Below, piece by piece: positions 2,181-53,510 of a stretch of 64,000 nucleotides of DNA (position 1 is its first letter; every line of letters starts with the position of its first letter). This DNA comes from an uncultured Lachnospiraceae bacterium (lineage in GTDB: Bacteria > Bacillota > Clostridia > Lachnospirales > Lachnospiraceae). Location: contig CAREEU010000007.1 of the NCBI GenBank assembly GCA_948964755.1, forward strand, positions 35,417 through 99,416, given 5' to 3'. The notes below the pieces were generated by a model. The model ran no database searches. It was not told where the DNA came from and saw nothing but the letters and a program-made list of their open reading frames with translations. The translations under genes were made by a program, and so were the position numbers.

Positions 2181-2441
2181 ACATAAATTGTGCCATAATA
2201 CAGCCAGAGTGCATTAGGGGTACACGGTGACTTCGTAGGAAAGTTAGAGGCTCTTAGACTTCTGTCGATCCATTAGGATTTTTTGCCATTCTCGAATGGC
2301 AAAAAAAGGGGTGTGTTTAGCCCGCTGTACGGGCGAATTGCACCCCGATCCGTCCGGTTAGATACACCCAACACCAGAAGTCTTAGAGCCTCTTACTTTC
2401 CGAAGAGCGGAACCGTGTACCCCTAATGCACTCTGGCGTCC
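2181..2441 (+). repeat. long palindromic element family 1 (LPE-1) copy A; A-type core, alpha-type 5' flank; preceded by an A-rich low-complexity tract at 2030-2200
   Basis: Conserved ends GCCAGAG/CTCTGGCGTCC. Long stem of about 65 bp encloses the core ttttttgccattctcgaatggcaaaaaaaggggtgtgtttagcccgctgtacgggcgaattgcacccc..ccgtccgg. Family has 9 copies in the window. Confidence 0.85.
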
Positions 2442-11340: not shown

Positions 11341-11390
11341 GTTTTTCTGTTTCCTTTCTAATACTTTTTACATTTCATAAATTAGATTTT

Positions 11391-11512
11391 AATCAAATCG
11401 GATATTCGCAGTCCGCTTTGCTACTTGCTCATAACCTCATCAAGGAAGTCCCAACCCACCGCTTTCGCCTTGGCGGCTTAGAAGCGGGGAACTTCCTTGA
11501 TAAGATTAAAAG
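11391..11512 (+). repeat. SHE-2 copy (single GC-hairpin module)
   Basis: aatcaaatcggatattcgcagtccgctttgctacttgctcataacctcat caaggaagtccc..gggaacttccttg ataagattaaaag. Overlaps the stop codon of the 11506 gene. Confidence 0.75.
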
Positions 11513-21549: not shown

Positions 21550-21808
21550 GGACGCCAGAGAGTATTAAAAGCACGCTGTTCCGCTCTCCAGAAAACAGAA
21601 ACTCTAAGACTTCTGAATTTCAATGCATCCAACCGGACGGACCGGCACGCAATTCGCCTCTGCAGGAGGCTAAGCACGTGCCTTTTTCGGGCACAAGTGC
21701 CCGAAAATCCTACAGAATCGACAGAAGTCTAAGAGTTTCTAGTTTTCCTCCGAAGTCACAGCGTACTTTTAATACTCTCTGGCTATATAATTCCACAATT
21801 TACGTTTC
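21550..21808 (-). repeat. LPE-1 copy B (B-type core, alpha flank), head-to-head with copy C
   Basis: Core variant cggcacgcaattcgcctctgcaggaggctaagcacgtgcctttttcgggcacaagtgcccgaaaa. Ends ggacgccagag..ctctggct plus the flank tatataattccacaatttacgtttc. Confidence 0.85.
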
Positions 21809-22245
21809 TTTTCTTTCACGGTTGTATGGTTCTTCAATTTGCGTTTTTTCTCCTTGGTGGTTGTATGATTCTGCAATTTACGTTTCTTCCCCTTTATGGT
21901 TATATGACTCTGCAATTTATGTTTCTCCTTAGCGGTTGTATGATTCTGCAATTTACGTTTCTTCCCCTTTATGGTTATATGACTCTGCAATTTATGTTTC
22001 TCCTTAGCGGTTGTATGATTCTGCAATTTACATTTCTTCTCTTTCATGGTTGTATAATTCTGCAATTTATGTTTCTTCTTGGCGGTTGTATGATTCCGCA
22101 ATTTACGTTTCTTCTCTTTCATGGTTGTATAATTCTGCAATTTATGTTTCTTCCCCTTTGTGATTATATGACTCTGCAATTTATATTTCTTCTTGGCGGT
22201 TGTATGATTCCGCAATTTACGTTTCTTTTTCTTTGCAGATGTATA
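21795..22245. repeat. tandem array, about 12 units of 36-39 bp (AATTTAYGTTTCTTnnnCTTnnnGGTTGTATGATTCTGC), derived from the LPE-1 alpha flank
   Basis: Units alternate between two subtypes and are near-identical to one another. The first unit is continuous with the flank of copy B. Confidence 0.8.
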
Positions 22246-22365: not shown

Positions 22366-22634
22366 ACATAAATTGCGGGAATACCAGCCAGAGGGAGAAA
22401 GTAAAATGGTATCGCAGTGACTTCGGAGGAAAGTTAGAAGGTCTTAGACTTCTGTCGATTTTGTAGGATTTTCGGGCACTTGTGCCCGAAAAAGGCACGT
22501 GTTTAGCCTCCTGCAGAGGCGAATTGCGTGCCGGTCCGTCCGGTTGGATACACCGAAATTCAGAAGTCTTAGACCTTCTTACTTTCCGTAGAGCGGAACT
22601 GCGATACCATTTTACTTTCTCCCTCTGGCGTCCT
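22366..22634 (+). repeat. LPE-1 copy C (B-type core, alpha flank)
   Basis: acataaattgcgggaataccagccagag..ctctggcgtcc. Variable stem gggagaaagtaaaatggtatcgcag pairs with its own 3' arm. Confidence 0.85.
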
Positions 22635-29349: not shown

Positions 29350-31113
29350 ATGAGAAAACATACGCTAGAAACCCGCTGGACACAGCAAATTACAGAAACA
29401 AATGCCTGGCAGGAATACCCTCGCCCTACTATGGTTCGCTCCTCTTATATAAACCTAAATGGTTACTGGGATTACAAAATCAGCAGACGTCACACCTTTC
29501 CCTCCGCCTATAGCGGAAAAATCCTAGTTCCGTTCTCTCCCGAATCCAAACTATCCGGTGTACAGCGTCAGTTAAAACCAAATGAATATCTCTGGTACCA
29601 CAGAACCCTTACCCCTTTATCATTTTCCAAACAAGAACGCCTCTATCTGCACTTTGGTGCAGTAGACCAATCCTGCACCATTTACCTCAACCGCCGGAAA
29701 GTCGGTTCCCATCAGGGAGGCTATCTTCCTTTTTCGATTGACATTACGGAAGCGATGCGGCACGCTTCACCCAAAAAGCCTCTAGACTTATTCGTATGTG
29801 TAACCGATCCCAGTGACACCTCCTATCACAGCCGGGGCAAACAAAAGCTCCGCAACGGCGGAATGTTTTATACTGCACAAAGCGGAATCTGGCAGACCGT
29901 CTGGATGGAACTTGTACCGGAAAATTTTATCCGCTATGTCAAATTCACTCCTGACTACGATAAAAAAGAAGTAAAAGTAAAGATTGCTACAGAAAAAACC
30001 TGTCCTGCTGTATTACATCTAAAATTAGAATCCGGCGATCTCTCTTATTCTTTTACAAGCAACCAAAGCTTTCGGATTCCGATTCGGGAATTTCACGCAT
30101 GGAGTCCAGAGCATCCCTATCTGTACCAAGTAAAAATCACTACAAAGACAGACTGTATCTCCAGTTACTTTGCCCTAAGAAAATGTGAAATTCAAACCGA
30201 TTCAAACGGAATCCGAAAAATCTTTCTTAATAATCGCCCCTATCCGCAGATTGGCATCCTCGATCAGGGATACTGGCCAGACGGACTCTATACCCCGCCC
30301 TGTGAAGAAGCGATTTTATTTGATCTTTTGGCAATAAAAAAATTGGGATTTAATATGATCCGCAAACATGTAAAAATCGAATCGGAACGCTGGTACTATC
30401 ACTGTGATCGGCTTGGTATTCTAGTCTGGCAGGATATGGTAAATGGCGGCTCACGCTACCACCGCTGGTTTGTTACCTACTTTGCCACTCTCTTTAACTG
30501 CCTGAATATCCGAATATTTGATCGTCCTCATGCTTTATTTTCACGCAGACAAAAAGAAAGCCGAACCGAATGGACCAAAGAAGTCGTATCCACTGTCCGC
30601 ACCTTATATCCTCATCCCTGCATTGTATGCTGGGTTCCATTTAACGAAGGATGGGGACAGTTTCGTGCACTTTCAGCAGCAGAATTGATTCGCAGTCTAG
30701 ACAAAGAGCGGCTGATCGATCACGCCAGCGGCTGGTTTGATCAGGGAGGCGGCGATATAAAAAGTATTCACTACTATTTCTTCTCCCTGATTCTAAAACC
30801 GGAACGGCGTGCACTCGCTCTGACCGAATTCGGCGGCTACACTTGGCATGTAAAAAAACACAGCTATTCCTCCAAAAAATTTGGCTATCGAACTTTTTAC
30901 AGCAAAAATTCCCTGTCAAAAGGCTATGCCAAATTATTAGAAGACCTGATTTTTCCTGCATTTCAAAACGGACTTTCCGCCTCCGTCTATACCCAGCTTT
31001 CCGATGTAGAAGAGGAACTAAACGGCATCTTTACCTATGACAGAAAAATTCTGAAATTAGACAAAAAAACGGTTACCGAATGGAACCAAAAAATAAAAAA
31101 TCTAATCGAGTAG
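29350..31113 (+). CDS. glycoside hydrolase family 2 protein (beta-glucuronidase/beta-galactosidase-like)
   Basis: 587 aa. GH2 sugar-binding domain (..HQGGYLPFSIDIT..) and TIM-barrel region with WVPFNEGWG. Confidence 0.75.
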   Translation: MRKHTLETRWTQQITETNAWQEYPRPTMVRSSYINLNGYWDYKISRRHTFPSAYSGKILVPFSPESKLSGVQRQLKPNEYLWYHRTLTPLSFSKQERLYLHFGAVDQSCTIYLNRRKVGSHQGGYLPFSIDITEAMRHASPKKPLDLFVCVTDPSDTSYHSRGKQKLRNGGMFYTAQSGIWQTVWMELVPENFIRYVKFTPDYDKKEVKVKIATEKTCPAVLHLKLESGDLSYSFTSNQSFRIPIREFHAWSPEHPYLYQVKITTKTDCISSYFALRKCEIQTDSNGIRKIFLNNRPYPQIGILDQGYWPDGLYTPPCEEAILFDLLAIKKLGFNMIRKHVKIESERWYYHCDRLGILVWQDMVNGGSRYHRWFVTYFATLFNCLNIRIFDRPHALFSRRQKESRTEWTKEVVSTVRTLYPHPCIVCWVPFNEGWGQFRALSAAELIRSLDKERLIDHASGWFDQGGGDIKSIHYYFFSLILKPERRALALTEFGGYTWHVKKHSYSSKKFGYRTFYSKNSLSKGYAKLLEDLIFPAFQNGLSASVYTQLSDVEEELNGIFTYDRKILKLDKKTVTEWNQKIKNLIE

Positions 31114-31255
31114 GAAAGGTTACTTTCCCTACTCGCTGTCTCAGGCGTCCGTCAGCTCCGCTGACCTATTTCATTAAAACATTCATGTGCATAAAAAGGG
31201 ACTGCTGCAAAATAATAAATTCCTATCCTATTTTGCAGCAGCCCCTTTTCCACTA
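31107..31255 (+). repeat. module-5 repeat (gagtaggg hairpin + gtcagc..gctgac hairpin) fused to a bidirectional terminator between convergent genes
   Basis: atcgagtaggaaaggttactttccctactcgctg..gtcagctccgctgac.. then gggactgctgcaaaata..tattttgcagcagcccc flanked by A and T tracts. The GH2 stop codon lies inside the first hairpin. Confidence 0.65.
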
Positions 31256-32541: not shown

Positions 32542-33165
32542 CTAATTCTTTTCATATATCTGAATCGTTGCATCAATCGAATCTACCACACTGACAATAT
32601 GATATTTTAATACAAACAATGCATTTGCCTCTTCTGGATATTTTTGCTTTACTTTTCGAAGAAGCGGAAGGATATATTGCCTGGTTTCTTCAATATATGC
32701 CTTTAATTTTTCCTTTGAAAATGCCCCCGCCATACACGATACATTATGACAGCGATCAATTAGTTTCGTAATAGACGCTTCCCGATTTTCTAAAAGTTCA
32801 TTATAATAACGATTCCTTGCAATCTCTTTTGTCTCACCTTCCATAACCCGAAATGTCATCAATTCTACACCTCGCCGCACAATATCATTTACTGGAAGTT
32901 CCTCCAAACTAATTCCGCAGTCTTCACAGACATCATGCAGTAAAATCGTTGCAATTATATTATCTTCCTTAATTCCAATACTAAGTGCATTGCACGCCAT
33001 AGTAAGAGGATGAATAATATAGGGTTCTCCTCCCTTACGCATCTGTCCCTCGTGTTTCTCTCTTGCAAAAGATAGTGCCTTTAATGTCTGTGTCATCTCT
33101 GCCCCAGAAGCATAACCTCGAATATAAGTATACATTTTATCTGGATAAAATACGGTTCTTTCCAT
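32542..33165 (-). CDS. HD-domain protein resembling the (p)ppGpp hydrolase domain of RelA/SpoT (small alarmone hydrolase-like)
   Basis: [25 protein letters not shown] metal-binding HD motif. 207 aa, stand-alone. Confidence 0.6.
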
Positions 33166-33287
33166 CTTCTATTTCCTTTATCGTTTTTATTATTGTTAAT
33201 AGGTTAAAACAATTACTCTACCAAAATCACTTTTTATAGTTTAGCATATTTTTTTTATATATTCAATATTCGATTTCAACTCCAAGG

Positions 33288-33546
33288 GGACGCCAGAGTG
33301 TTTTAGGGAGACGTGTTCCGCTCTCCAGAAAGCAGAAGTTCTAAGACTTCTGAATTTCCGTGCATCCCACCGGACGGACCGGCACGCAATTCGCCTCTGC
33401 AGGAGGCTAAACACGTGCCTTTTTCGGGCACAAGTGCCCGAAAATCCTACAGAATCGACAGAAGTCTAAGAACTTCTGCTTTCCTCCGAAGTCACAGCGT
33501 CTCCCTAAAGCACTCTGGCTGTATTGTCTCACAATTTACGTTTCCT
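33288..33546 (-). repeat. LPE-1 copy D (B-type core, alpha flank), head-to-head with copy E
   Basis: ggacgccagagtgttttagggagacgtg..core..cagcgtctccctaaagcactctggct gtattgtctcacaatttacgtttc. Confidence 0.85.
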
Positions 33547-33674
33547 TTCTCGATCCTCTATGAATACAGGAATCAACTTTTATGTTTTCTTTTCTCGATC
33601 CTCTATGGATACATAAATCAATTTCCATGTTTTCCTTTTTCGAACCTCTATGGATACAGGAATCAAATAAAAAC
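33547..33674. repeat. tandem array, about 3 units of ~46 bp, reiterating the alpha-flank-like sequence between LPE-1 copies D and E
   Basis: ctttctcgatcctctatgaatacaggaatcaacttttatgttttc repeated with variation. Confidence 0.7.
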
Positions 33675-33943
33675 TTATCGGCAGGAAAAAACAGCCAGAG
33701 TGGGGAAAAGATTCCTTGCCACTGTGACTTCGGAAAAAGTTAGAAAGTCTTATGCTTTTGTCGATCCACTAGGATTTTTTGCCATTCTCGAATGGCAAAA
33801 AAAGGGGTGTGTTTAGCCCGCTGTACGGGCGAATTGCACCCCGGTCCGTCCGGCTGGATGTATCTACATTCAAAAGCATTAGACTTTCTTACTTTTTGGA
33901 GAGCGGAACAGTGGCAAGGAATCTTTTCCCCACTCTAGCGTCC
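33675..33943 (+). repeat. LPE-1 copy E (A-type core, beta flank)
   Basis: tatcggcaggaaaaaacagccagag tggggaaaagattccttgccactg..core..cagtggcaaggaatcttttcccca ctctagcgtcc. Confidence 0.85.
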
Positions 33944-33989
33944 CCCCGCCCACACTATAACACCAAAACCTTTACACCCTATCCCCCTT

Positions 33990-35288
33990 CTATAAAATAT
34001 CAATATATTCCCCAGATAAAGCCTTATTCATACTGCGAACGGCACAAAATTTTCCGCACATCGAACAACTGTCCTCCTGCTCCGGTTTTCGCTCTTCCCG
34101 AATCTGCTTCGCCGTTTTTGGATCTATCGCACACTCCCACTGCTTTTCCCAATCCAATTCCCGCCGTGCCTGAGCCATTGCATCATCTAATTCCCTAGCC
34201 CCTCGAATCCCCTTTGCAATATCAGCCGCATGAGCCGCAATTCGGGAAGCTATTATCCCCTGCCGCACATCCTCTAAATTCGGCAAAGCCAAATGCTCCG
34301 CCGGAGTTACATAGCACAAAAAAGAAGCTCCCGCCGCTGCCGCAATCGCTCCTCCAATCGCAGCCGTAATATGATCATACCCAGGTGCAATATCGGTTAC
34401 CAAAGGTCCCAACACATAAAAAGGTGCCCCCATACAGATTGTCTGCTGGATCTTCATATTAGCCGCAATTTGATCCATCGGCATATGCCCGGGACCTTCC
34501 ACCATTACCTGCACATCCCTCTCCCAAGCACGTTTTGTTAATTCTCCCAGCCGCACCAATTCTTCTATCTGACAGACATCCGAAGCATCCGCCAAACATC
34601 CCGGCCGACAGGCATCCCCAAGAGAGATCGTAACATCATATTCCCGGCAAATTTCCAAAATTTCATCATAATACTGATAAAACGGATTTTCCTCTCCGGT
34701 CATGCACATCCAGGCAAATACCAAAGACCCTCCCCGTGATACAATATTCATTTTCCGCTTCTGCGTTCGAATCTGTTCGATTGTCTTTCTGGTAATCCCA
34801 CAGTGCAAAGTTACAAAATCTACTCCATCTTCTGCATGAAGCCGAATCACATCTAAAAAGTCCTGTGCACAAAGTGTCGCTAAATCCCGCTGATAGTGAA
34901 TCACCGCATCATAAACCGGTACGGTTCCAATCATTGCCGGACATTCTGCCGTTAATTTTCTCCGAAACGGCTGTGTATCTCCATGGGAAGATAAATCCAT
35001 AATCGAGTGAGCACCCATTTCCACTGCTTTTTGTACCTTTTTCATCTCTGCTTCTTTATCTTTACAATCTTTCGAGACTCCCAGATTGACATTGATCTTT
35101 GTGCGAAGCATTGATCCAATCCCTTCTGCATCTAAACAGGCATGATTTTTATTTGCACAGATCACAACTTTTCCCTCCGCTACAAGCGGCATCAGCTCCT
35201 CTGCTGTCATTTGTTCTTTAACCGCAACCGCTTTTAATTGTTCTGTAAGAATCCCTTTCCGTGCAGCTTCCATCTGTGTAGCATACAT
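33990..35288 (-). CDS. thiC: phosphomethylpyrimidine synthase
   Basis: 432 aa. Conserved ThiC regions and the C-terminal CxxC..C cluster region (..[12 protein letters not shown]..). Confidence 0.9.
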
Positions 35289-35367
35289 TCTTTTTTCCTC
35301 CTGCCGATTTTTTTAGTTTTTATTTCTTCTCTTATCTAATGTGTTTCCTTCTTATTGTGCCTGTTTT

Positions 35368-36165
35368 CTAATTTTCTAAATTCCACATATGGTTCAATGG
35401 ACCGTTTCCATGTCCAAGAAAAATCTCCTTCTGCAATGCTCCGCTGATATATTCTTTTGCCAGCCGCACGCTCTCTTCCAATTCCTTTCCCTTTGCTAAA
35501 TTAGAAACAATCGCTGCACTTAAGGTACATCCTGTTCCATGTGTATTAGAAACATAATATCGTTCTCCGCTTATCCAGATTTTCCGATTTTGTTTTATTT
35601 CATAAAGAAAATCATCTGCATCCTCTGCTGCATGTCCTCCCTTTAACAGAACACTGCATCCATACCGCTGACCCATTTCCACTGCCGCTGCCTCTCTCTC
35701 TGCTTTCCTTTGAATCGTTCTGTTCACTAATCGCTCTGCCTCTAAAAGATTAGGCGTAATCAGTCTTGCCATAGGAAACAATCTCTTTGCCAACTCGGTC
35801 TTTCCCTCTCTGCCTAAAAATTCCGTCCCGCTAGTAGAACCCATAACGGGATCGATAACAAGGTTGTCAGCCTGATAATAGGCAAGCCTTTCTGCAAGGA
35901 TCGGAATCAAACACTTAGAACCAATCATTCCAATCTTTACTGCATCCGGTACAATATCTGTAAAAATACTGTCTATCTGCTGCCTGAAACATTCCTCTGT
36001 CACCGGACAGACTGCAGACACTCCTCTTGTATTCTGTGCCGTCAAAGCTGTAATCACACTCATTCCATAAACGCCATGCATCGTCATCGTCTTTAAGTCT
36101 GCCTGAATCCCCGCTCCGCCTGAACAGTCACTTCCCGCTATTGTAAGTGCCGTTTTTATCATATT
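35368..36165 (-). CDS. thiD: hydroxymethylpyrimidine/phosphomethylpyrimidine kinase
   Basis: TIAGSDCSGGAGIQADLKT motif. Start at the internal Met (MIKTALTIAG), overlapping the thiE stop. Confidence 0.85.
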   Translation of the reverse strand, partial: NMIKTALTIAGSDCSGGAGIQADLKTMTMHGVYGMSVITALTAQNTRGVSAVCPVTEECFRQQIDSIFTDIVPDAVKIGMIGSKCLIPILAERLAYYQADNLVIDPVMGSTSGTEFLGREGKTELAKRLFPMARLITPNLLEAERLVNRTIQRKAEREAAAVEMGQRYGCSVLLKGGHAAEDADDFLYEIKQNRKIWISGERYYVSNTHGTGCTLSAAIVSNLAKGKELEESVRLAKEYISGALQKEIFLGHGNGPLNHMWNLEN

Positions 36166-36814
36166 AGCTTCTCCCTCCAATTTCAAATAGCTGCTCACAC
36201 CTTCTGCGAAGCCGCAAAACAGCCGACGGTATCTCTTTTTGGGCAAAAACAGCTCGAATCACAGCAACTCCGCAAATCCCGGTTCCTGCAAGCTGATCCA
36301 GATTTTCTTCTACAATCCCTCCAATCGCTATAACTGGAATAGAAACGGTCTGAACAATTTGCCGCAGTACTTCTATTTCGACAGCCTGTGCATCTGCTTT
36401 AGACTGTGTAGCAAAAATAGCTCCAACCCCTAAATAATCCGCTCCCTGCCGTTGTGCCAGCACAGCCTGTTCCACTGTCTGCACCGATACCCCAAGAATC
36501 TTTTCTTTTCCTATCTTCTCCCTTACTAAAGAAGCCTCCATATCCGTCTGCCCCACATGTACGCCGTCCGCATCCAGACAACAAGCCAGTTCTACATGAT
36601 CATTGATTAAAAAAGGAACCTGATACTGCCTGCAAAGTCTTTGTACCTCCAACGCTTCCCTATAACACTCCTCTTTAGACAATTCCTTTTCCCGAAGCTG
36701 CAGCATAGTTACTCCTCCCTTTAATGCCTCTTCCACCTGCCAAATAAAAGGATGCTCTCTATCCGACCAGCCCCGATCCGTCACCGCATAGAGCAGCCAA
36801 TCACCGCATCTCAT
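36164..36814 (-). CDS. thiE: thiamine-phosphate synthase
   Basis: 216 aa, TMP-TENI fold motifs (..LQLREKELS..IAIGGI..). Confidence 0.85.
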   Translation of the reverse strand: MRCGDWLLYAVTDRGWSDREHPFIWQVEEALKGGVTMLQLREKELSKEECYREALEVQRLCRQYQVPFLINDHVELACCLDADGVHVGQTDMEASLVREKIGKEKILGVSVQTVEQAVLAQRQGADYLGVGAIFATQSKADAQAVEIEVLRQIVQTVSIPVIAIGGIVEENLDQLAGTGICGVAVIRAVFAQKEIPSAVLRLRRRCEQLFEIGGRS

Positions 36815-37622
36815 AATTTGCCCTCCTCTCCAACTCCTCTCCGCTCATCCGATAGACCGCATCAATAATCCGATTTCGATAAGAAGCATTTCCGTCTCCC
36901 TTTTCCATTCTCTCCCATGCCACTTCTCCAGCAATCCCCATCACACAGACAGCAGCCGCACAAGCCTCCAATTTCCGCTCAGGATTTGCCGCCAAATAGG
37001 CAGCCGTCACAGCCGAAAGCTGACATCCGGTTCCTGTAATTTTGCTCATCTCAGGACGTCCGTTTCGAATAATATAACTATGCCTTTCATCCAAAACCAA
37101 ATCAATCGCTCCCGTACAGACAAGAATACAATGTCTTTCTTTTGCAAATGCCTGAAAAATCAAGATCATTTCTTCCAGATTTTCTTCTGTCACCACATCC
37201 ATTACATTGGCATCCACTCCCTGCGTATTTCCGCTTCCAAACACCAAAGCCTTTAGTTCCGAACTATTTCCCCGAATACAGTCAAAGGAAATCTCCCGCA
37301 TCAGTGAAAGAGCCGTATTGGTTCGAAACATACTAGCTCCAGCTCCCACCGGATCGAATACTACACAATGCCCCAATTTCACTGCCTGTTTCCCTGCAGC
37401 AAACATAGCCGGAACCGTATGCTGATTCAACGTCCCAATATTAATCGTCAGCCCGTCACAAATCGAAGTAATCTCCGCCGCCTCTTCCAAATCATCCGCC
37501 ATAATCGGACTTGCTTTACAAGCAAGCAGCACATTTGCCACATCATTCACCGTTACATAATTTGTAATATTATGAATTAACGGCATCTTTCTTTCCACAG
37601 CTTCCAAACATTCTTTTAACAT
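36801..37622 (-). CDS. thiM: hydroxyethylthiazole kinase
   Basis: 273 aa. ThiM signature ..PLIHNITNYVTVNDVAN.. Confidence 0.85.
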   Translation of the reverse strand: MLKECLEAVERKMPLIHNITNYVTVNDVANVLLACKASPIMADDLEEAAEITSICDGLTINIGTLNQHTVPAMFAAGKQAVKLGHCVVFDPVGAGASMFRTNTALSLMREISFDCIRGNSSELKALVFGSGNTQGVDANVMDVVTEENLEEMILIFQAFAKERHCILVCTGAIDLVLDERHSYIIRNGRPEMSKITGTGCQLSAVTAAYLAANPERKLEACAAAVCVMGIAGEVAWERMEKGDGNASYRNRIIDAVYRMSGEELERRANYEMR

Positions 37623-37653
37623 ATCACATTCCTCCTTTTCTTGGAGAACCTCT

Positions 37654-37706
37654 AATCAAAGGAAATTCGGAATCCGCTCCGCTACTTCCTTGATAGGTTA
37701 AAAATA
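37654..37706 (+). repeat. SHE-2 minimal copy
   Basis: aatcaaaggaaattcggaatccgctccgctacttccttgataggttaaaaa. Confidence 0.65.
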
Positions 37707-37862
37707 AGCCGTCCCTTTCCCTGTCATACCAAACCTGCCATCCCTTCCACCTGTCACAATGGAACCTCTACCCTCCTTCTACAATCAAACAAGAAAAATT
37801 TATCTTCCCCTGCTCATCTACCAAAATCCGTCAGCTTACTGAACGATTCCTTTGAACACCCA

Positions 37863-37950
37863 TATACCATCGAGTAGGAAAATTTCCTCTCCTTACTCGC
37901 TGCACCAAGCGTCCATCAGCTCCGCTAACATCGTTCCCTTGGACGCCCGC
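37863..37950 (+). repeat. module-5 repeat copy
   Basis: atcgagtaggaaaatttcctctccttactcgctg..catcagctccgctaac..cgttcccttg..catacataaaaaaa. Same order and orientation as the copies at 31107 and 49320. Confidence 0.65.
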
Positions 37951-37954
37951 ATAC

Positions 37955-38100
37955 ATAAAAAAATGCAGACACGCAAAAAGCATATCTGCACCGTTCTTCC
38001 GCAAATGATGTCCCTACGTTGGCATTATCCAAATCAGGTTTTAAGGGTAAAAGCCTCACATGCTTACTCTCAGCCTATTCTAATAAGCTCCCCATATATT
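37955..38100 (-). ncRNA. TPP riboswitch (THI element) with terminator-type expression platform
   Basis: Minus-strand sequence ggggagc..aggctgagag..acccttaaaacctgatttggataatgccaacgtagggaca matches the TPP aptamer consensus (CUGAGA, ACCUGAUCUGGAUAAUGCCAGCGUAGGGAA). It is followed by the hairpin gcagatatgc/gcgtgtctgc and a T7 run. Confidence 0.75.
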
Positions 38101-38159
38101 TCTATTATAACCTCTTTTTAAAAAAACACAATCCCCTTTTTCCAACAAAATCCTTTAAC

Positions 38160-38334
38160 CCCTCCCAACACCATACCTCATTTGAACCTCTATTTTTTAC
38201 TGAAATTATTCGAACCAAGTCCAATCAAATCCAACACCATACCTCATTTGAACTCCTATCTTTTACTGAAATTGGTCCAACCAAGTCCAATCAAATCCAA
38301 CATCGTACCTCATTTGAGCCTCTATCTTTTACTC
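38160..38334. repeat. tandem array, about 3 units of ~62 bp, immediately 5' of LPE-1 copy F
   Basis: tccaacaccatacctcatttgaacctctattttttactgaaattattcgaaccaagtccaatcaaa repeated with variation. Confidence 0.7.
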
Positions 38335-38603
38335 TATCGGCAGGATAAATCAGCCAGAACAAAGAAGCAATTTCTTGCTGACGTGACTTCGGAGAAAAGT
38401 TAGAAAGTCTTACGCTTTTGTCGATCCACTAGGATTTTTTGCCATTCCCGAATGGCAAAAAAAGGGGTGTGTTTAGCCCGCTGCACGGGCGAATTGCACC
38501 CCGGTCCGTCCGGCTGGATGCATCAAAATTCAAAAGCGTTAGACTTTCTTACTTTTCGGAGAGCGGAACGTCAGCAAGAAATTGCTTCTTTGTTCTAGCG
38601 TCC
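38335..38603 (+). repeat. LPE-1 copy F (A-type core, beta flank)
   Basis: tatcggcaggataaatcagccagaac aaagaagcaatttcttgctgacg..core..cgtcagcaagaaattgcttctttg ttctagcgtcc. Confidence 0.85.
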
Positions 38604-38635
38604 CCCCACCCCCATCCAATCATGAAAAAATCCCC

Positions 38636-48892: not shown

Positions 48893-49158
48893 GGACGCCA
48901 GAGTATGGCATTACAGTACTGTTCCGCTCTACAGAAAGTAAGAAGCTCTAAGACTTCTGAATTTAGATGCATCCAACCGGACGGACCGGGGTGCAATTCG
49001 CCCGTGCTGCGGGCTAAACACACCCCTTTTTTTGCCATTCAAGAATGGCAAAAAATCCTAATGAATCGACAGAAGTCTAAAAGCTTCTAACTTTCCTCCG
49101 AAGTCACAGTACTGCAATGCCATACTCTGGCTGTCTTTTTCCACAATATAGGTATTCT
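48893..49158 (-). repeat. LPE-1 copy H (A-type core, alpha-like flank)
   Basis: ggacgccagag tatggcattacagtactg..core (tttttttgccattcaagaatggcaaaaaa)..cagtactgcaatgccata ctctggctg tctttttccacaatataggtattc. Confidence 0.85.
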
Positions 49159-49177: not shown

Positions 49178-49235
49178 TTTTTAACCTATCAAGGAAGTAG
49201 CGAAGCGAATTCCGAATTTTTTTTGACTTAATAAA
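49178..49235 (-). repeat. SHE-2 minimal copy (reverse orientation)
   Basis: Reverse complement reads aagtcaaaaaaaattcggaattcgcttcgctacttccttgataggttaaaaa. Confidence 0.6.
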
Positions 49236-49290: not shown

Positions 49291-49319
49291 TTTGTTATGT
49301 TCTTTCTATTTTTATAATC

Positions 49320-49445
49320 GAGTAGGGAAGGCTGCCTCCTCTACTCGCCGTGCTAAATGTCTGTCAGTTCTGCTGACATCGTTCCTTGAGATATCTGTGT
49401 ACATAAAAAAATTCCCTGTAAACATTTCGTCTACAGAGAACGCCC
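49320..49445 (+). repeat. module-5 repeat copy (contains the tRNA-Leu terminator on its minus strand)
   Basis: atcgagtagggaaggctgcctcctctactcgcc..gtcagttctgctgac..cgttccttg..tacataaaaaaa..ctgtaaacatttcgtctacag. Confidence 0.65.
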
Positions 49446-49455
49446 CTGCCAAGAG

Positions 49456-49538
49456 TGCCGCAGGCCGGACTTGAACCGGCACGAGGTCGCCCCCGCTAGA
49501 TTTTGAGTCTAGTGCGTCTGCCATTCCGCCACTGCGGC
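49456..49538 (-). tRNA. tRNA-Leu (anticodon CAA), class II with long variable arm
   Basis: Minus strand GCCGCAGTGGCGGAATGGCAGACGCACTAGACTCAAAATCTAGCGGGGGCGACCTCGTGCCGGTTCAAGTCCGGCCTGCGGCA. 7-bp acceptor, anticodon loop cuCAAaa, T-arm GGTTCAAGTCC. CCA is not encoded. Confidence 0.8.
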
Positions 49539-53109: not shown

Positions 53110-53376
53110 TATCGCCAGAAAGAACCAGCTGGAGTTTGGAAGCCCTTTCTCTATGCAGTGACTTCGGAGAAAAGTTAGAAAGTCTTATGCCTCTGTCGAT
53201 CTCCTAGGATTTTTGCCATCTTCTGATGGCAAAAAAGGGGTGTGTTTAGCCCGCTGCACGGGCGAATTGCACCCCGGTCCGTCCGGTTGGATATATTTTC
53301 ATTCAGAGGCATTAGACTTTCTTACTTTTCGGAGAGCGGAACAGCATAGAGAAAGGGCTTCCAAACTCCAGCGTCC
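53110..53376 (+). repeat. LPE-1 copy I (A-type core with gccatc/gatggc hairpin variant, beta-like flank)
   Basis: atcgccagaaagaaccagctggag tttggaagccctttctctatgcag..core (tttgccatcttctgatggcaaaa)..ctgcatagagaaagggcttccaaa ctccagcgtcc. Confidence 0.85.
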
Positions 53377-53510
53377 TCTACACCATCCCCCAGCTTTTCC
53401 ATCCTAATATCCACACATCATCCCCCAACTTTCCCATCTCAATATTCACACCATCCCCCCAACTTTCCCATCTCAGTATCCACACCATTCCCATTCCCCT
53501 CAACCTTCAC
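53377..53510. repeat. tandem array, about 3 units of ~37 bp, immediately 3' of LPE-1 copy I
   Basis: catcccccaactttcccatctcaatattcacac repeated with variation. Confidence 0.65.

Follow-up and report, generated by a model that had tools for sequence, protein, structure and literature searches.

An uncultured Lachnospiraceae bacterium carries, upstream of its thiamine operon thiM-thiE-thiD-thiC, a riboswitch for thiamine pyrophosphate (TPP) that is separated from the first gene by an unusually long leader. We analyzed this leader within a 64,000-nt stretch of contig CAREEU010000007.1 (assembly GCA_948964755.1, positions 35,417 to 99,416 of the forward strand), hereafter the window; coordinates refer to the window unless preceded by the number of a comparison locus (L001 and so on). 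We consider it likely that this is a standard TPP riboswitch whose leader passively carries repeat DNA. The gap would then lie outside the switch, interspersed repeats having entered between the T-run of the riboswitch terminator and the ancestral ribosome-binding stretch of thiM. A preliminary description of the window had placed a THI element, a terminator and a T7 run on the minus strand about 330 nt before thiM, an arrangement borne out by an aptamer match of 67.7 bits and a gap of 334 nt.

The operon and the elements that precede it are the following.

33990-37622 (-): thi operon, thiM-thiE-thiD-thiC, from NCBIfam matches and gene calls on the same-species contig L054
33990-35288 (-): thiC, NCBIfam ThiC, 652.4 bits
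35368-36162 (-): thiD, NCBIfam HMP-P kinase, 297.2 bits
36164-36814 (-): thiE, NCBIfam ThiE, 221.6 bits
36801-37622 (-): thiM, NCBIfam ThiM, 286.6 bits
37957-37992 (-): intrinsic terminator from a terminator scan, with a 13-bp stem (37992-37980/37974-37962), loop UUUUU and T7 run (37963-37957)
37994-38104 (-): TPP (THI-box) aptamer, Rfam RF00059, 67.7 bits against a gathering score of 54.3, E 3.8e-11, model positions 1-105 in full
38001-38010 (-): 3′ strand of P1, CAUCAUUUGC, whose alternative partner is the 5′ arm of the terminator, GCAGAUAUG (37989-37981), forming the predicted antiterminator
38104-38131 (-): putative thi promoter read from the sequence, -35 TTGTGT (38131-38126), 16-nt spacer, -10 TATAAT (38109-38104)

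The thiM start is the ATG at 37622. A Shine-Dalgarno (SD) sequence, GGAGG, lies in front of it at 37635-37631, and the NCBIfam ThiM model aligns to the N-terminus from residue 2, in agreement with the earlier assignment of thiM as the first gene. The -35 of the putative promoter is weak, and the -10 is directly upstream of the aptamer; GTTATAATA of this promoter and the GATTG upstream of it are kept in L001 and L188. By the Rfam model and every other testable criterion (a score above the curated threshold, thiamine genes downstream on the same strand, the same layout in about 41 relatives, and a platform with a terminator and a thermodynamically predicted competing antiterminator), the thi riboswitch is an RF00059 member. 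It is also the single TPP element that Rfam finds across the whole 64-kb window, and the earlier statement that no second riboswitch precedes thiC holds.

The terminator stem has a predicted free energy of -19.1 kcal/mol and also appears in the centroid fold. RNAfold gives the competing antiterminator helix -8.1 kcal/mol (38016-37975), and the equivalent helix in L001 has -8.6 kcal/mol. Based on structure prediction and on established knowledge of the TPP family, we infer that the switch is a conventional TPP riboswitch of the transcription-termination type. With TPP bound, P1 would form and the 13-bp terminator would halt transcription at the T7 run; in the absence of TPP, the 3′ strand of P1 would pair with the 5′ arm of the terminator, allowing read-through into thiM-thiE-thiD-thiC. 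Other TPP riboswitches of Firmicutes with terminator platforms share this design, having a terminator and T-run directly 3′ of the aptamer and a P1-based antiterminator upstream of genes for thiamine salvage or biosynthesis. The thi leader differs from them in its gap (334 nt, compared to 31-33 nt at empty orthologous sites) and in that the extra DNA is repeat-derived.

Comparison with relatives points to strong conservation of the switch. The nearest genome in the GTDB collection, a metagenome-assembled genome (MAG) of an uncultured Lachnospiraceae bacterium with 72% ThiM identity (L001), is identical to the window over the -10, about 95 nt of the aptamer and the 3′ arm and T-run of the terminator. 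The aptamer identity (37999-38095 on the minus strand, L001 3821-3923) is 100% with the variable P3 region included, compared to 72% for the DNA from thiM to thiD. The 3′ arm with its T-run, GCGTGTCTGCATTTTTTT, is also near-identical in L186, L188, L193 and L195. Because promoter, aptamer and terminator are near-unchanged while ThiM of the relatives is only 72-83% identical, the terminator/antiterminator design looks to be under selection. The aptamer shared by the window and L001 recurs in L188, a degree of conservation beyond what structure alone would need.

Set against related loci, the leader is long. Across 41 related loci in which the riboswitch lies directly before thiM, the distance from the end of the aptamer to the ATG has a median of about 125 nt and exceeds 200 nt in only three (250, 314 and 481 nt); the window, at about 375 nt, is the second longest. 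The premise that expression platforms normally abut the regulated gene is thus roughly right, with a usual spacing of tens of nucleotides to about 150 nt, but a terminator-type switch has no mechanistic need for proximity. The longest leader, of about 476-481 nt, belongs to Maccoyibacter intestinihominis (L003); its opposite strand encodes a TwoAYGGAY RNA (104 bits, L003 3658-3824) in the interval from the TPP riboswitch to thiM. As this leader has also been widened by an extra element, leader expansion recurs in the group. Self-BLAST of the long leaders in L002, L003 and L029 (8.8 kb per locus) returned internal palindromes only.

The preliminary description had proposed comparing thi leaders among relatives. 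We searched for nearer relatives by protein and retrieved their contigs, which include both repeat-free and repeat-bearing orthologous sites. They are given below with their ThiM identity to the window and the distance from T-run to ATG; module-5 and SHE-2 are the repeat families that the preliminary description had named in this leader.

L193/L194: ThiM 77%, 31 nt; empty, with GCGTATCTGCATTTTTT joined to GCGTCCCCGGCAAAAAAGGAGG before the ATG
L001: ThiM 72%, 33 nt; empty
L188-L190: ThiM 74%, 107 nt; unrelated sequence without a repeat match
L186: ThiM 83%, 116 nt; truncated module-5 (ATGCG and hairpin C) right after the T-run, followed by part of a second unit
L195: ThiM 74%, 192 nt; two decayed units
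L187: ThiM 80%, contig starts inside the repeat; 3′ end of the module, CTACTCGATTG, abuts TCCCC..GGAGG
L192: ThiM 77%, contig starts inside the repeat; right junction as in L187
Window: ThiM 100%, 334 nt; largest version

Common to all of these sites are the terminator at the left and a TCCCC/CTCC..AAAAGGAGG stretch at the right. In the window, the latter is the ancestral ribosome-binding stretch CTCCAAGAAAAGGAGGAATGTGAT (37623-37646, minus strand), with the homologs TCCCCGGCAAAAAAGGAGG in L193, TCCCAGAAAAGAAGGAGG in L001, TCCCCGATAAAAGGAGG in L186 and TCCCCGACAAAAAAGGAGG in L187. Module-5 is thus present at this site in the window, L186, L187, L192 and L195 and absent from L193/L194 and L001. 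The module-5 profile matches the site in L186 (E 2e-7), L187 (2e-5) and L195 (5e-5), and it has no match in L193, L188 or L001. That the extra leader DNA is an insertion at an orthologous site is directly supported by these sequence comparisons. The occupied or empty state does not strictly track ThiM similarity, suggesting that the terminator was hit more than once or that an old insert was lost in some lineages. Among contigs of the same species, identity is 99.4% or higher, and the insert is present in every one that extends into the leader. Short-read contigs of this species and its relatives (L058-L061, L187, L192) stop within SHE-2 or module-5, at 54-97 nt before thiM. The repeats break short-read assemblies at the thi leader and could hide the link between riboswitch and gene in fragmented MAGs.

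The insert spans about 310 nt between the T-run and the ancestral ribosome-binding stretch and consists of four parts, in the order of transcription:

37867-37956 (-): module-5 unit 1, intact; nhmmer match 37962-37864, E 6.5e-23; aligned with the other window copies and 72 family members
37781-37866 (-): module-5 unit 2, a decayed tandem copy (GGGTGTTCAAAGGAATCGTTCAGTAAGCTGACGGATTTTGG ... GAGCAGGGGAAGATAAATTTTTCTTGTTTGATTGT), found by local alignment
37709-37780 (-): purine-rich spacer, with two copies of TGACAGG..GRAAGGGA
37647-37708 (-): minimal SHE-2, in which the 5′ end TTTTTAACCTATCAAGGAAGT and the 3′ tail AGCGGAGCGGATTCCGAATTTCCTTTGATTAGAGGTT of the full 165-nt element are joined

Both repeats that had been reported in the leader are there, module-5 by profile and SHE-2 (37708-37647) by alignment and BLAST. 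The segment 37865-37781, previously taken as unoccupied, is instead the second module-5 unit. Its alignment to unit 1 and to the module-5 copy at 31.1 kb scores 32-33, compared to 16 +/- 2.8 for shuffled sequences, a level reached by 0-1 of 1000 shuffles; profile search gives a marginal match to the hairpin-C part only (E 0.046). Unit 1 starts with ATGTATGC and continues with stem A (GCGGGCGTCC/GGACGCTTGG), the internal loop AAGGGAACGAT, hairpin B (GTTAGC/GCTGAT), hairpin C (CGAGTAAGGAGAGG/TTTTCCTACTCG) and the 3′ end ATGG. Neither the rest of the window nor any fetched locus matches the purine-rich spacer, which also shows no similarity to module-5.

The minimal SHE-2 comprises the first ~20 and last ~35 nt of the full element and folds into one long imperfect hairpin. 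Its ends match copies at 1855-2019, 11387-11511, 40182-40346 and 63809-63921, and BLAST aligns it at 92% identity, in inverted orientation, to 49178-49226. With terminal inverted repeats (TIRs; TTTTAAyC...GAyTAAAA), five or six copies in the window and a deletion derivative that keeps both ends, SHE-2 resembles a miniature inverted-repeat transposable element (MITE). Among all fetched loci it was seen only in the species of the window, and a permissive scan of 37500-38700 matched it to no Rfam 15 family. The hairpin of the leader copy was flagged as a possible second terminator (37681-37668) and rejected, as its stem has just 5 bp, its T-run is poor and the segment precedes genes that need expression. 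The fold of the whole leader is unexceptional (z = -1.78).

A leader of this length is long enough to hold a promoter of its own, which would drive thiM independently and leave the riboswitch vestigial or merely the source of a terminated small RNA. Repeats can in principle create promoters, since an SHE-2 copy upstream of pncB supplies a good -35. On the thi strand from 37955 to 37623, however, we found no sigma-70-like site: none reaches 9 of 12 consensus matches and none is apparent by eye, and the TTGATT of the thi SHE-2 copy precedes the SD rather than a -10. The near-unchanged promoter, aptamer and terminator across relatives with 72-83% ThiM identity also argue against a vestigial switch, making this reading very unlikely.

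The preliminary description had raised, besides such a promoter, the possibility that the riboswitch controls a small open reading frame (ORF) in the leader and not thiM directly. ORFs of 32-57 codons do overlap the region on the thi strand, and two of the three full module-5 copies in the window have an ATG after the T-run. Every candidate, though, starts within the aptamer or terminator or lacks an SD, with no credible ORF starting downstream of the terminator. The module-5 frame is not conserved: the 31.1-kb copy interrupts it, and most substitutions that separate the copies are non-synonymous or stem-compensatory. The 31-33-nt leaders of relatives leave no room for an ORF. We thus rejected a small ORF as the riboswitch target and regard this explanation as the most improbable of those considered.

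The position of the insert becomes clearer when module-5 is considered as a family. For a census, we scanned metagenome contigs with a sequence pattern and then searched with a profile; the family counts given here are among the matches listed, and these hold more than 100 copies. The pattern fixed hairpin C, so the invariance of this hairpin says nothing. In the 5′ part, the consensus consists of a T-run, ATGCRCAS, stem A (9 bp), an internal loop with A(A/G)GGAA, and hairpin B; the 3′ part contains the 3′ arm of stem A, SGCGCG, hairpin C (GCGAGTAGGGG...CCCCTACTCG) and ATTG. In stems A and B, 95.2% of cells are paired, compared to 80.3% in shuffles and about 40% with the partners slid, and 275 cells are changed on both sides, compared to 92 in shuffles. 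The boundaries are sharp, with similarity running from the T-run/ATGC to CTACTCGATTG in many dispersed copies.

The window itself holds three full copies (37962-37864, 31101-31198 and 49313-49411), one decayed copy and one partial copy. All three full copies begin with TTTTTATG right after unrelated GC-rich hairpins and a T-run; these terminators belong to the riboswitch, to the gene that ends at 31253 and to the tRNA at 49456-49538. In the wider family, a hairpin of at least 5 bp ending no more than 5 nt from the T-run precedes 67 of 78 non-redundant full-length copies (86%), compared to 465 of 2000 random 45-mers (23%) and 77 of 267 sequences before any T5 run (29%). Consistent with this, the 50 nt upstream of module-5 have a mean folding energy of -12.0 kcal/mol, whereas random 50-mers average -8.1 (p = 4e-11). 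In 54 of 66 cases, module-5 is on the same strand as the gene before it, whose stop codon precedes the module by a median of 66 nt; just 5 of 83 copies lie inside long ORFs. Some units stand in tandem behind a single terminator (L157, L129, L139, L112), and some follow tRNA terminators (L139, L091).

Rfam annotation of 20 module-5-bearing loci revealed other regulated leaders. On one metagenome contig (L112 12572-13025), a T-box terminator is followed by 1.5 units of module-5 and then trpE. On another (L119 12478-12747), the terminator of an L10 leader is followed by module-5, 53 nt before rplJ. Module-5 is therefore compatible with the expression of genes behind it and, since one of these is an essential ribosomal-protein gene, cannot strongly block transcription or translation. 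Hairpin C was also rejected as a terminator, because it lies ahead of rplJ and trpE and a T-run is missing behind it in most copies.

These observations fit a simple account in which the riboswitch terminator is one more target of a terminator-adjacent, tandem-forming repeat. The insert would be co-transcribed as part of the 5′ untranslated region (UTR) in the ON state, as the preliminary description had foreseen for every antiterminated transcript, and tolerated there; it would be passive because termination is decided before the insert is transcribed. Signs of decay are found in the degenerate unit 2 of the window, the loss of stem A pairing in the 31.1-kb copy and the truncated units in relatives. 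Expansion by repeats is also seen at the other end of the operon, where 825 nt (33165-33990) separate thiC from its neighbor, an HD-domain RelA/SpoT-like gene, and contain two TwoAYGGAY RNAs and a tandem array; the corresponding spacer in L001 (7573-7692) is about 120 nt. Judged from the sequence, repeat-driven intergenic expansion is general in the genome of the window.

The preliminary description had left open whether the repeats had merely entered the leader or had been recruited to serve in it. The empty sites in L193/L194 and L001 uphold insertion. Co-option would make module-5 and/or SHE-2 a second regulatory layer on the read-through thi mRNA, and we consider it unlikely. Its possible forms include binding sites for a CsrA-like or other GGA-recognizing protein, RNase entry sites or stabilizing hairpins, and a structure that sequesters the SD. 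Several features are compatible with such a layer: the conserved A(A/G)GGAA internal loop of module-5 lies between covarying stems, SHE-2 carries ATCAAGGAAGT and lies 25-30 nt from the SD, and the thiM SD is, by prediction, largely base-paired. Several species have retained module-5-derived DNA at the thi terminator, and nine TwoAYGGAY RNAs, a type proposed to act as CsrA sponges (PMC4333381), lie within the window. However, the content and length of the insert differ per species (116, 192 and 334 nt), with units truncated or decayed as unit 2 is here, two related lineages have no insert, and SHE-2 and the purine-rich spacer are confined to the species of the window. The distance from module-5 to downstream starts also varies, from about 0 to 1560 nt with a median of 127, and the element occurs between convergent genes too, where there is nothing to regulate.

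Some points nevertheless weigh against passive carriage. Read-through, co-transcription and neutrality of the insert are inferences, and the promoter scan was a crude sigma-70 consensus test that weak or alternative-sigma promoters could escape. Module-5-derived DNA has been kept at the thi site in at least five diverged lineages, possibly through selection instead of slow decay or repeated insertion; hairpin C is recognizable in the window, L186 and L187 and diverged or partial in L195 and L192. The strong covariation of the stems and the conserved A(A/G)GGAA loop are likewise compatible with a functional RNA. Predicted SD accessibility is 0.07-0.14 in the window compared to 0.20-0.24 in L001, so a modest translational effect is possible; as the SD is predicted to be mostly paired in both, we claim no clear one. 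Mobility of module-5 would rest on presence or absence at orthologous sites and on copy number, no TIR, target-site duplication or transposase having been found for it, although the ORFs neighboring the metagenome copies were not screened. Finally, the census was biased by the hairpin-C search pattern and by its restriction to the matches listed.

The thi leader has a counterpart in Streptococcus pneumoniae, where a BOX repeat lies between the T-boxes of the trp leader and was shown by RNA-seq to be co-transcribed with regulation retained (Croucher et al. 2011, PMC3049150). In both cases, a small modular repeat sits in a riboswitch-controlled leader, giving a long compound UTR. The two differ in repeat family, host and riboswitch class, and BOX has TIRs and no reported terminator preference, whereas module-5 directly adjoins the terminator at its 3′ edge; for BOX, co-transcription was demonstrated, and for the thi leader it is predicted. 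By analogy with the pneumococcal trp leader, the thi leader is a further example of a known phenomenon. It indicates that a terminator-type riboswitch tolerates hundreds of bases between terminator and gene, so that assigning riboswitches to genes by distance can fail in repeat-rich genomes. Attenuator terminators are also targets of terminator-adjacent repeats, and the thi sites provide a natural series of empty, occupied and decayed states.

The terminator-adjacent module-5 family appears to be uncatalogued and is the more interesting by-product of this analysis. Module-5 corresponds to no family in Rfam 15; a permissive scan of 37500-38700 returned TPP, TwoAYGGAY and two chance-level matches, and the tandem array of well-conserved units in L157 gave only matches far below threshold. 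The PLSDB plasmid collection contains no homologs, viral contigs gave four pattern matches with one full copy (L183), and literature searches with the module sequence or with combined keywords found no report of module-5. TIRs and target-site duplications were sought and not found: ATGCRCAS and CTACTCGATTG are not inversions of each other, and empty and occupied sites show no duplicated flank. Module-5 is therefore not a classical MITE.

PATEs, which are miniature elements derived from IS200/IS605, and REP/BIME sequences likewise have neither TIRs nor target-site duplications. Module-5 resembles them in this respect and in having hairpins near both ends, a fixed orientation relative to a TTTTTAT flank, tandem clusters and an intergenic location. 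Dependence on a preceding arbitrary hairpin has not been described for these elements, and we take the resemblance as a lead only. SPRITE repeats of S. pneumoniae are also small, located at gene 3′ ends and endowed with terminator-like structure (PMC3049150). A SPRITE itself resembles a terminator, whereas module-5 follows host terminators and mostly has no T-run of its own.

The insertion preference of module-5 recalls that of bacterial class C group II introns, whose insertion sites follow intrinsic terminators (PMC4424553). Like them, module-5 is oriented directly downstream of a terminator hairpin and T-run of any gene (the 67 of 78 copies above). It measures only 90-100 nt and has no reverse transcriptase ORF, and most copies start with ATGCR and not GUGYG. 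No group II intron or domain V match was found in Rfam, Intron_gpII included, at E values up to 5. Module-5 cannot be an intron, and a group II intron fragment was likewise rejected given the absence of an Rfam intron match and the wrong 5′ end.

We tentatively propose, short of favoring it, that module-5 may be an uncatalogued structured family of about 90-100 nt in gut-type Clostridia, located specifically at the 3′ flank of intrinsic terminators, including riboswitch, T-box and ribosomal-protein-leader attenuators, and acting either as a non-autonomous mobile element or as a functional RNA. If mobile, module-5 may recognize targets consisting of a hairpin and a U/T-run, by analogy with group IIC introns, without a ribozyme or reverse transcriptase. 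If functional, it may act on terminator read-through transcripts, with the A(A/G)GGAA loop as a candidate protein- or ribosome-binding site. Either reading, if true, would make the thi leader one of many sites where regulated read-through RNAs carry the element. Given its absence from Rfam, its copy number, its covarying stems and its position behind terminator hairpins, module-5 merits description, whether as a structured RNA or as a mobile element whose target is unusual.

Module-5 and SHE-2 also occur together elsewhere in the window. A partial module-5 (hairpin C) at 40401-40446 on the minus strand lies right after the stop codon of an 812-aa gene and is followed by a full SHE-2 (40182-40346, minus strand) upstream of pncB. 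The order of module-5 and then SHE-2 repeats in the thi leader and after the tRNA (49411-49178). At the 3′ end of the SHE-2 upstream of pncB, TTGACT (40191-40186) stands 18 nt before TATACT (40167-40162), a plausible hybrid pncB promoter. Another copy (11387-11511, minus strand) takes up nearly all the DNA from the stop codon of one gene (11506) to the start of the next, which has the same orientation (11340), and must therefore be co-transcribed or supply signals for the downstream gene.

TwoAYGGAY-like RNAs (RF01731) are frequent in the window. We counted them by nhmmer, as a whole-window Rfam scan loses most copies to speed filters.

2232-2407 (+): TwoAYGGAY-like RNA
21584-21755 (-): TwoAYGGAY-like RNA
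22421-22593 (+): TwoAYGGAY-like RNA
33321-33491 (-): TwoAYGGAY-like RNA
33729-33903 (+): TwoAYGGAY-like RNA
38387-38563 (+): TwoAYGGAY-like RNA
43026-43198 (+): TwoAYGGAY-like RNA
48927-49103 (-): TwoAYGGAY-like RNA
53162-53336 (+): TwoAYGGAY-like RNA

These nine copies in 64 kb amount to about one per 7 kb; the two that were scored reach 68 bits. One copy is on the strand opposite the thi promoter, 280 nt upstream of it. Short tandem arrays stand beside several of them:

21780-22234: array of 39/36 nt, nine units
33541-33675: array of 45 nt, three units
38165-38362: array of 66 nt, three units
53387-53489: array of 34 nt, three units

The arrays at 21.6-22.6 kb and 33.3-33.9 kb are each flanked by two divergently oriented TwoAYGGAY copies, and the 66-nt array begins about 35 nt upstream of the thi -35. 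A role in binding regulators is possible for these arrays; the one with 39/36-nt units, which overlaps ORFs, could be coding. Upstream of pncB, the 812-aa ORF (40461-42899, minus strand) matches Pfam MVP_shoulder and, faintly, Vault_3, suggesting a major-vault-protein-like product that is unusual for Lachnospiraceae.

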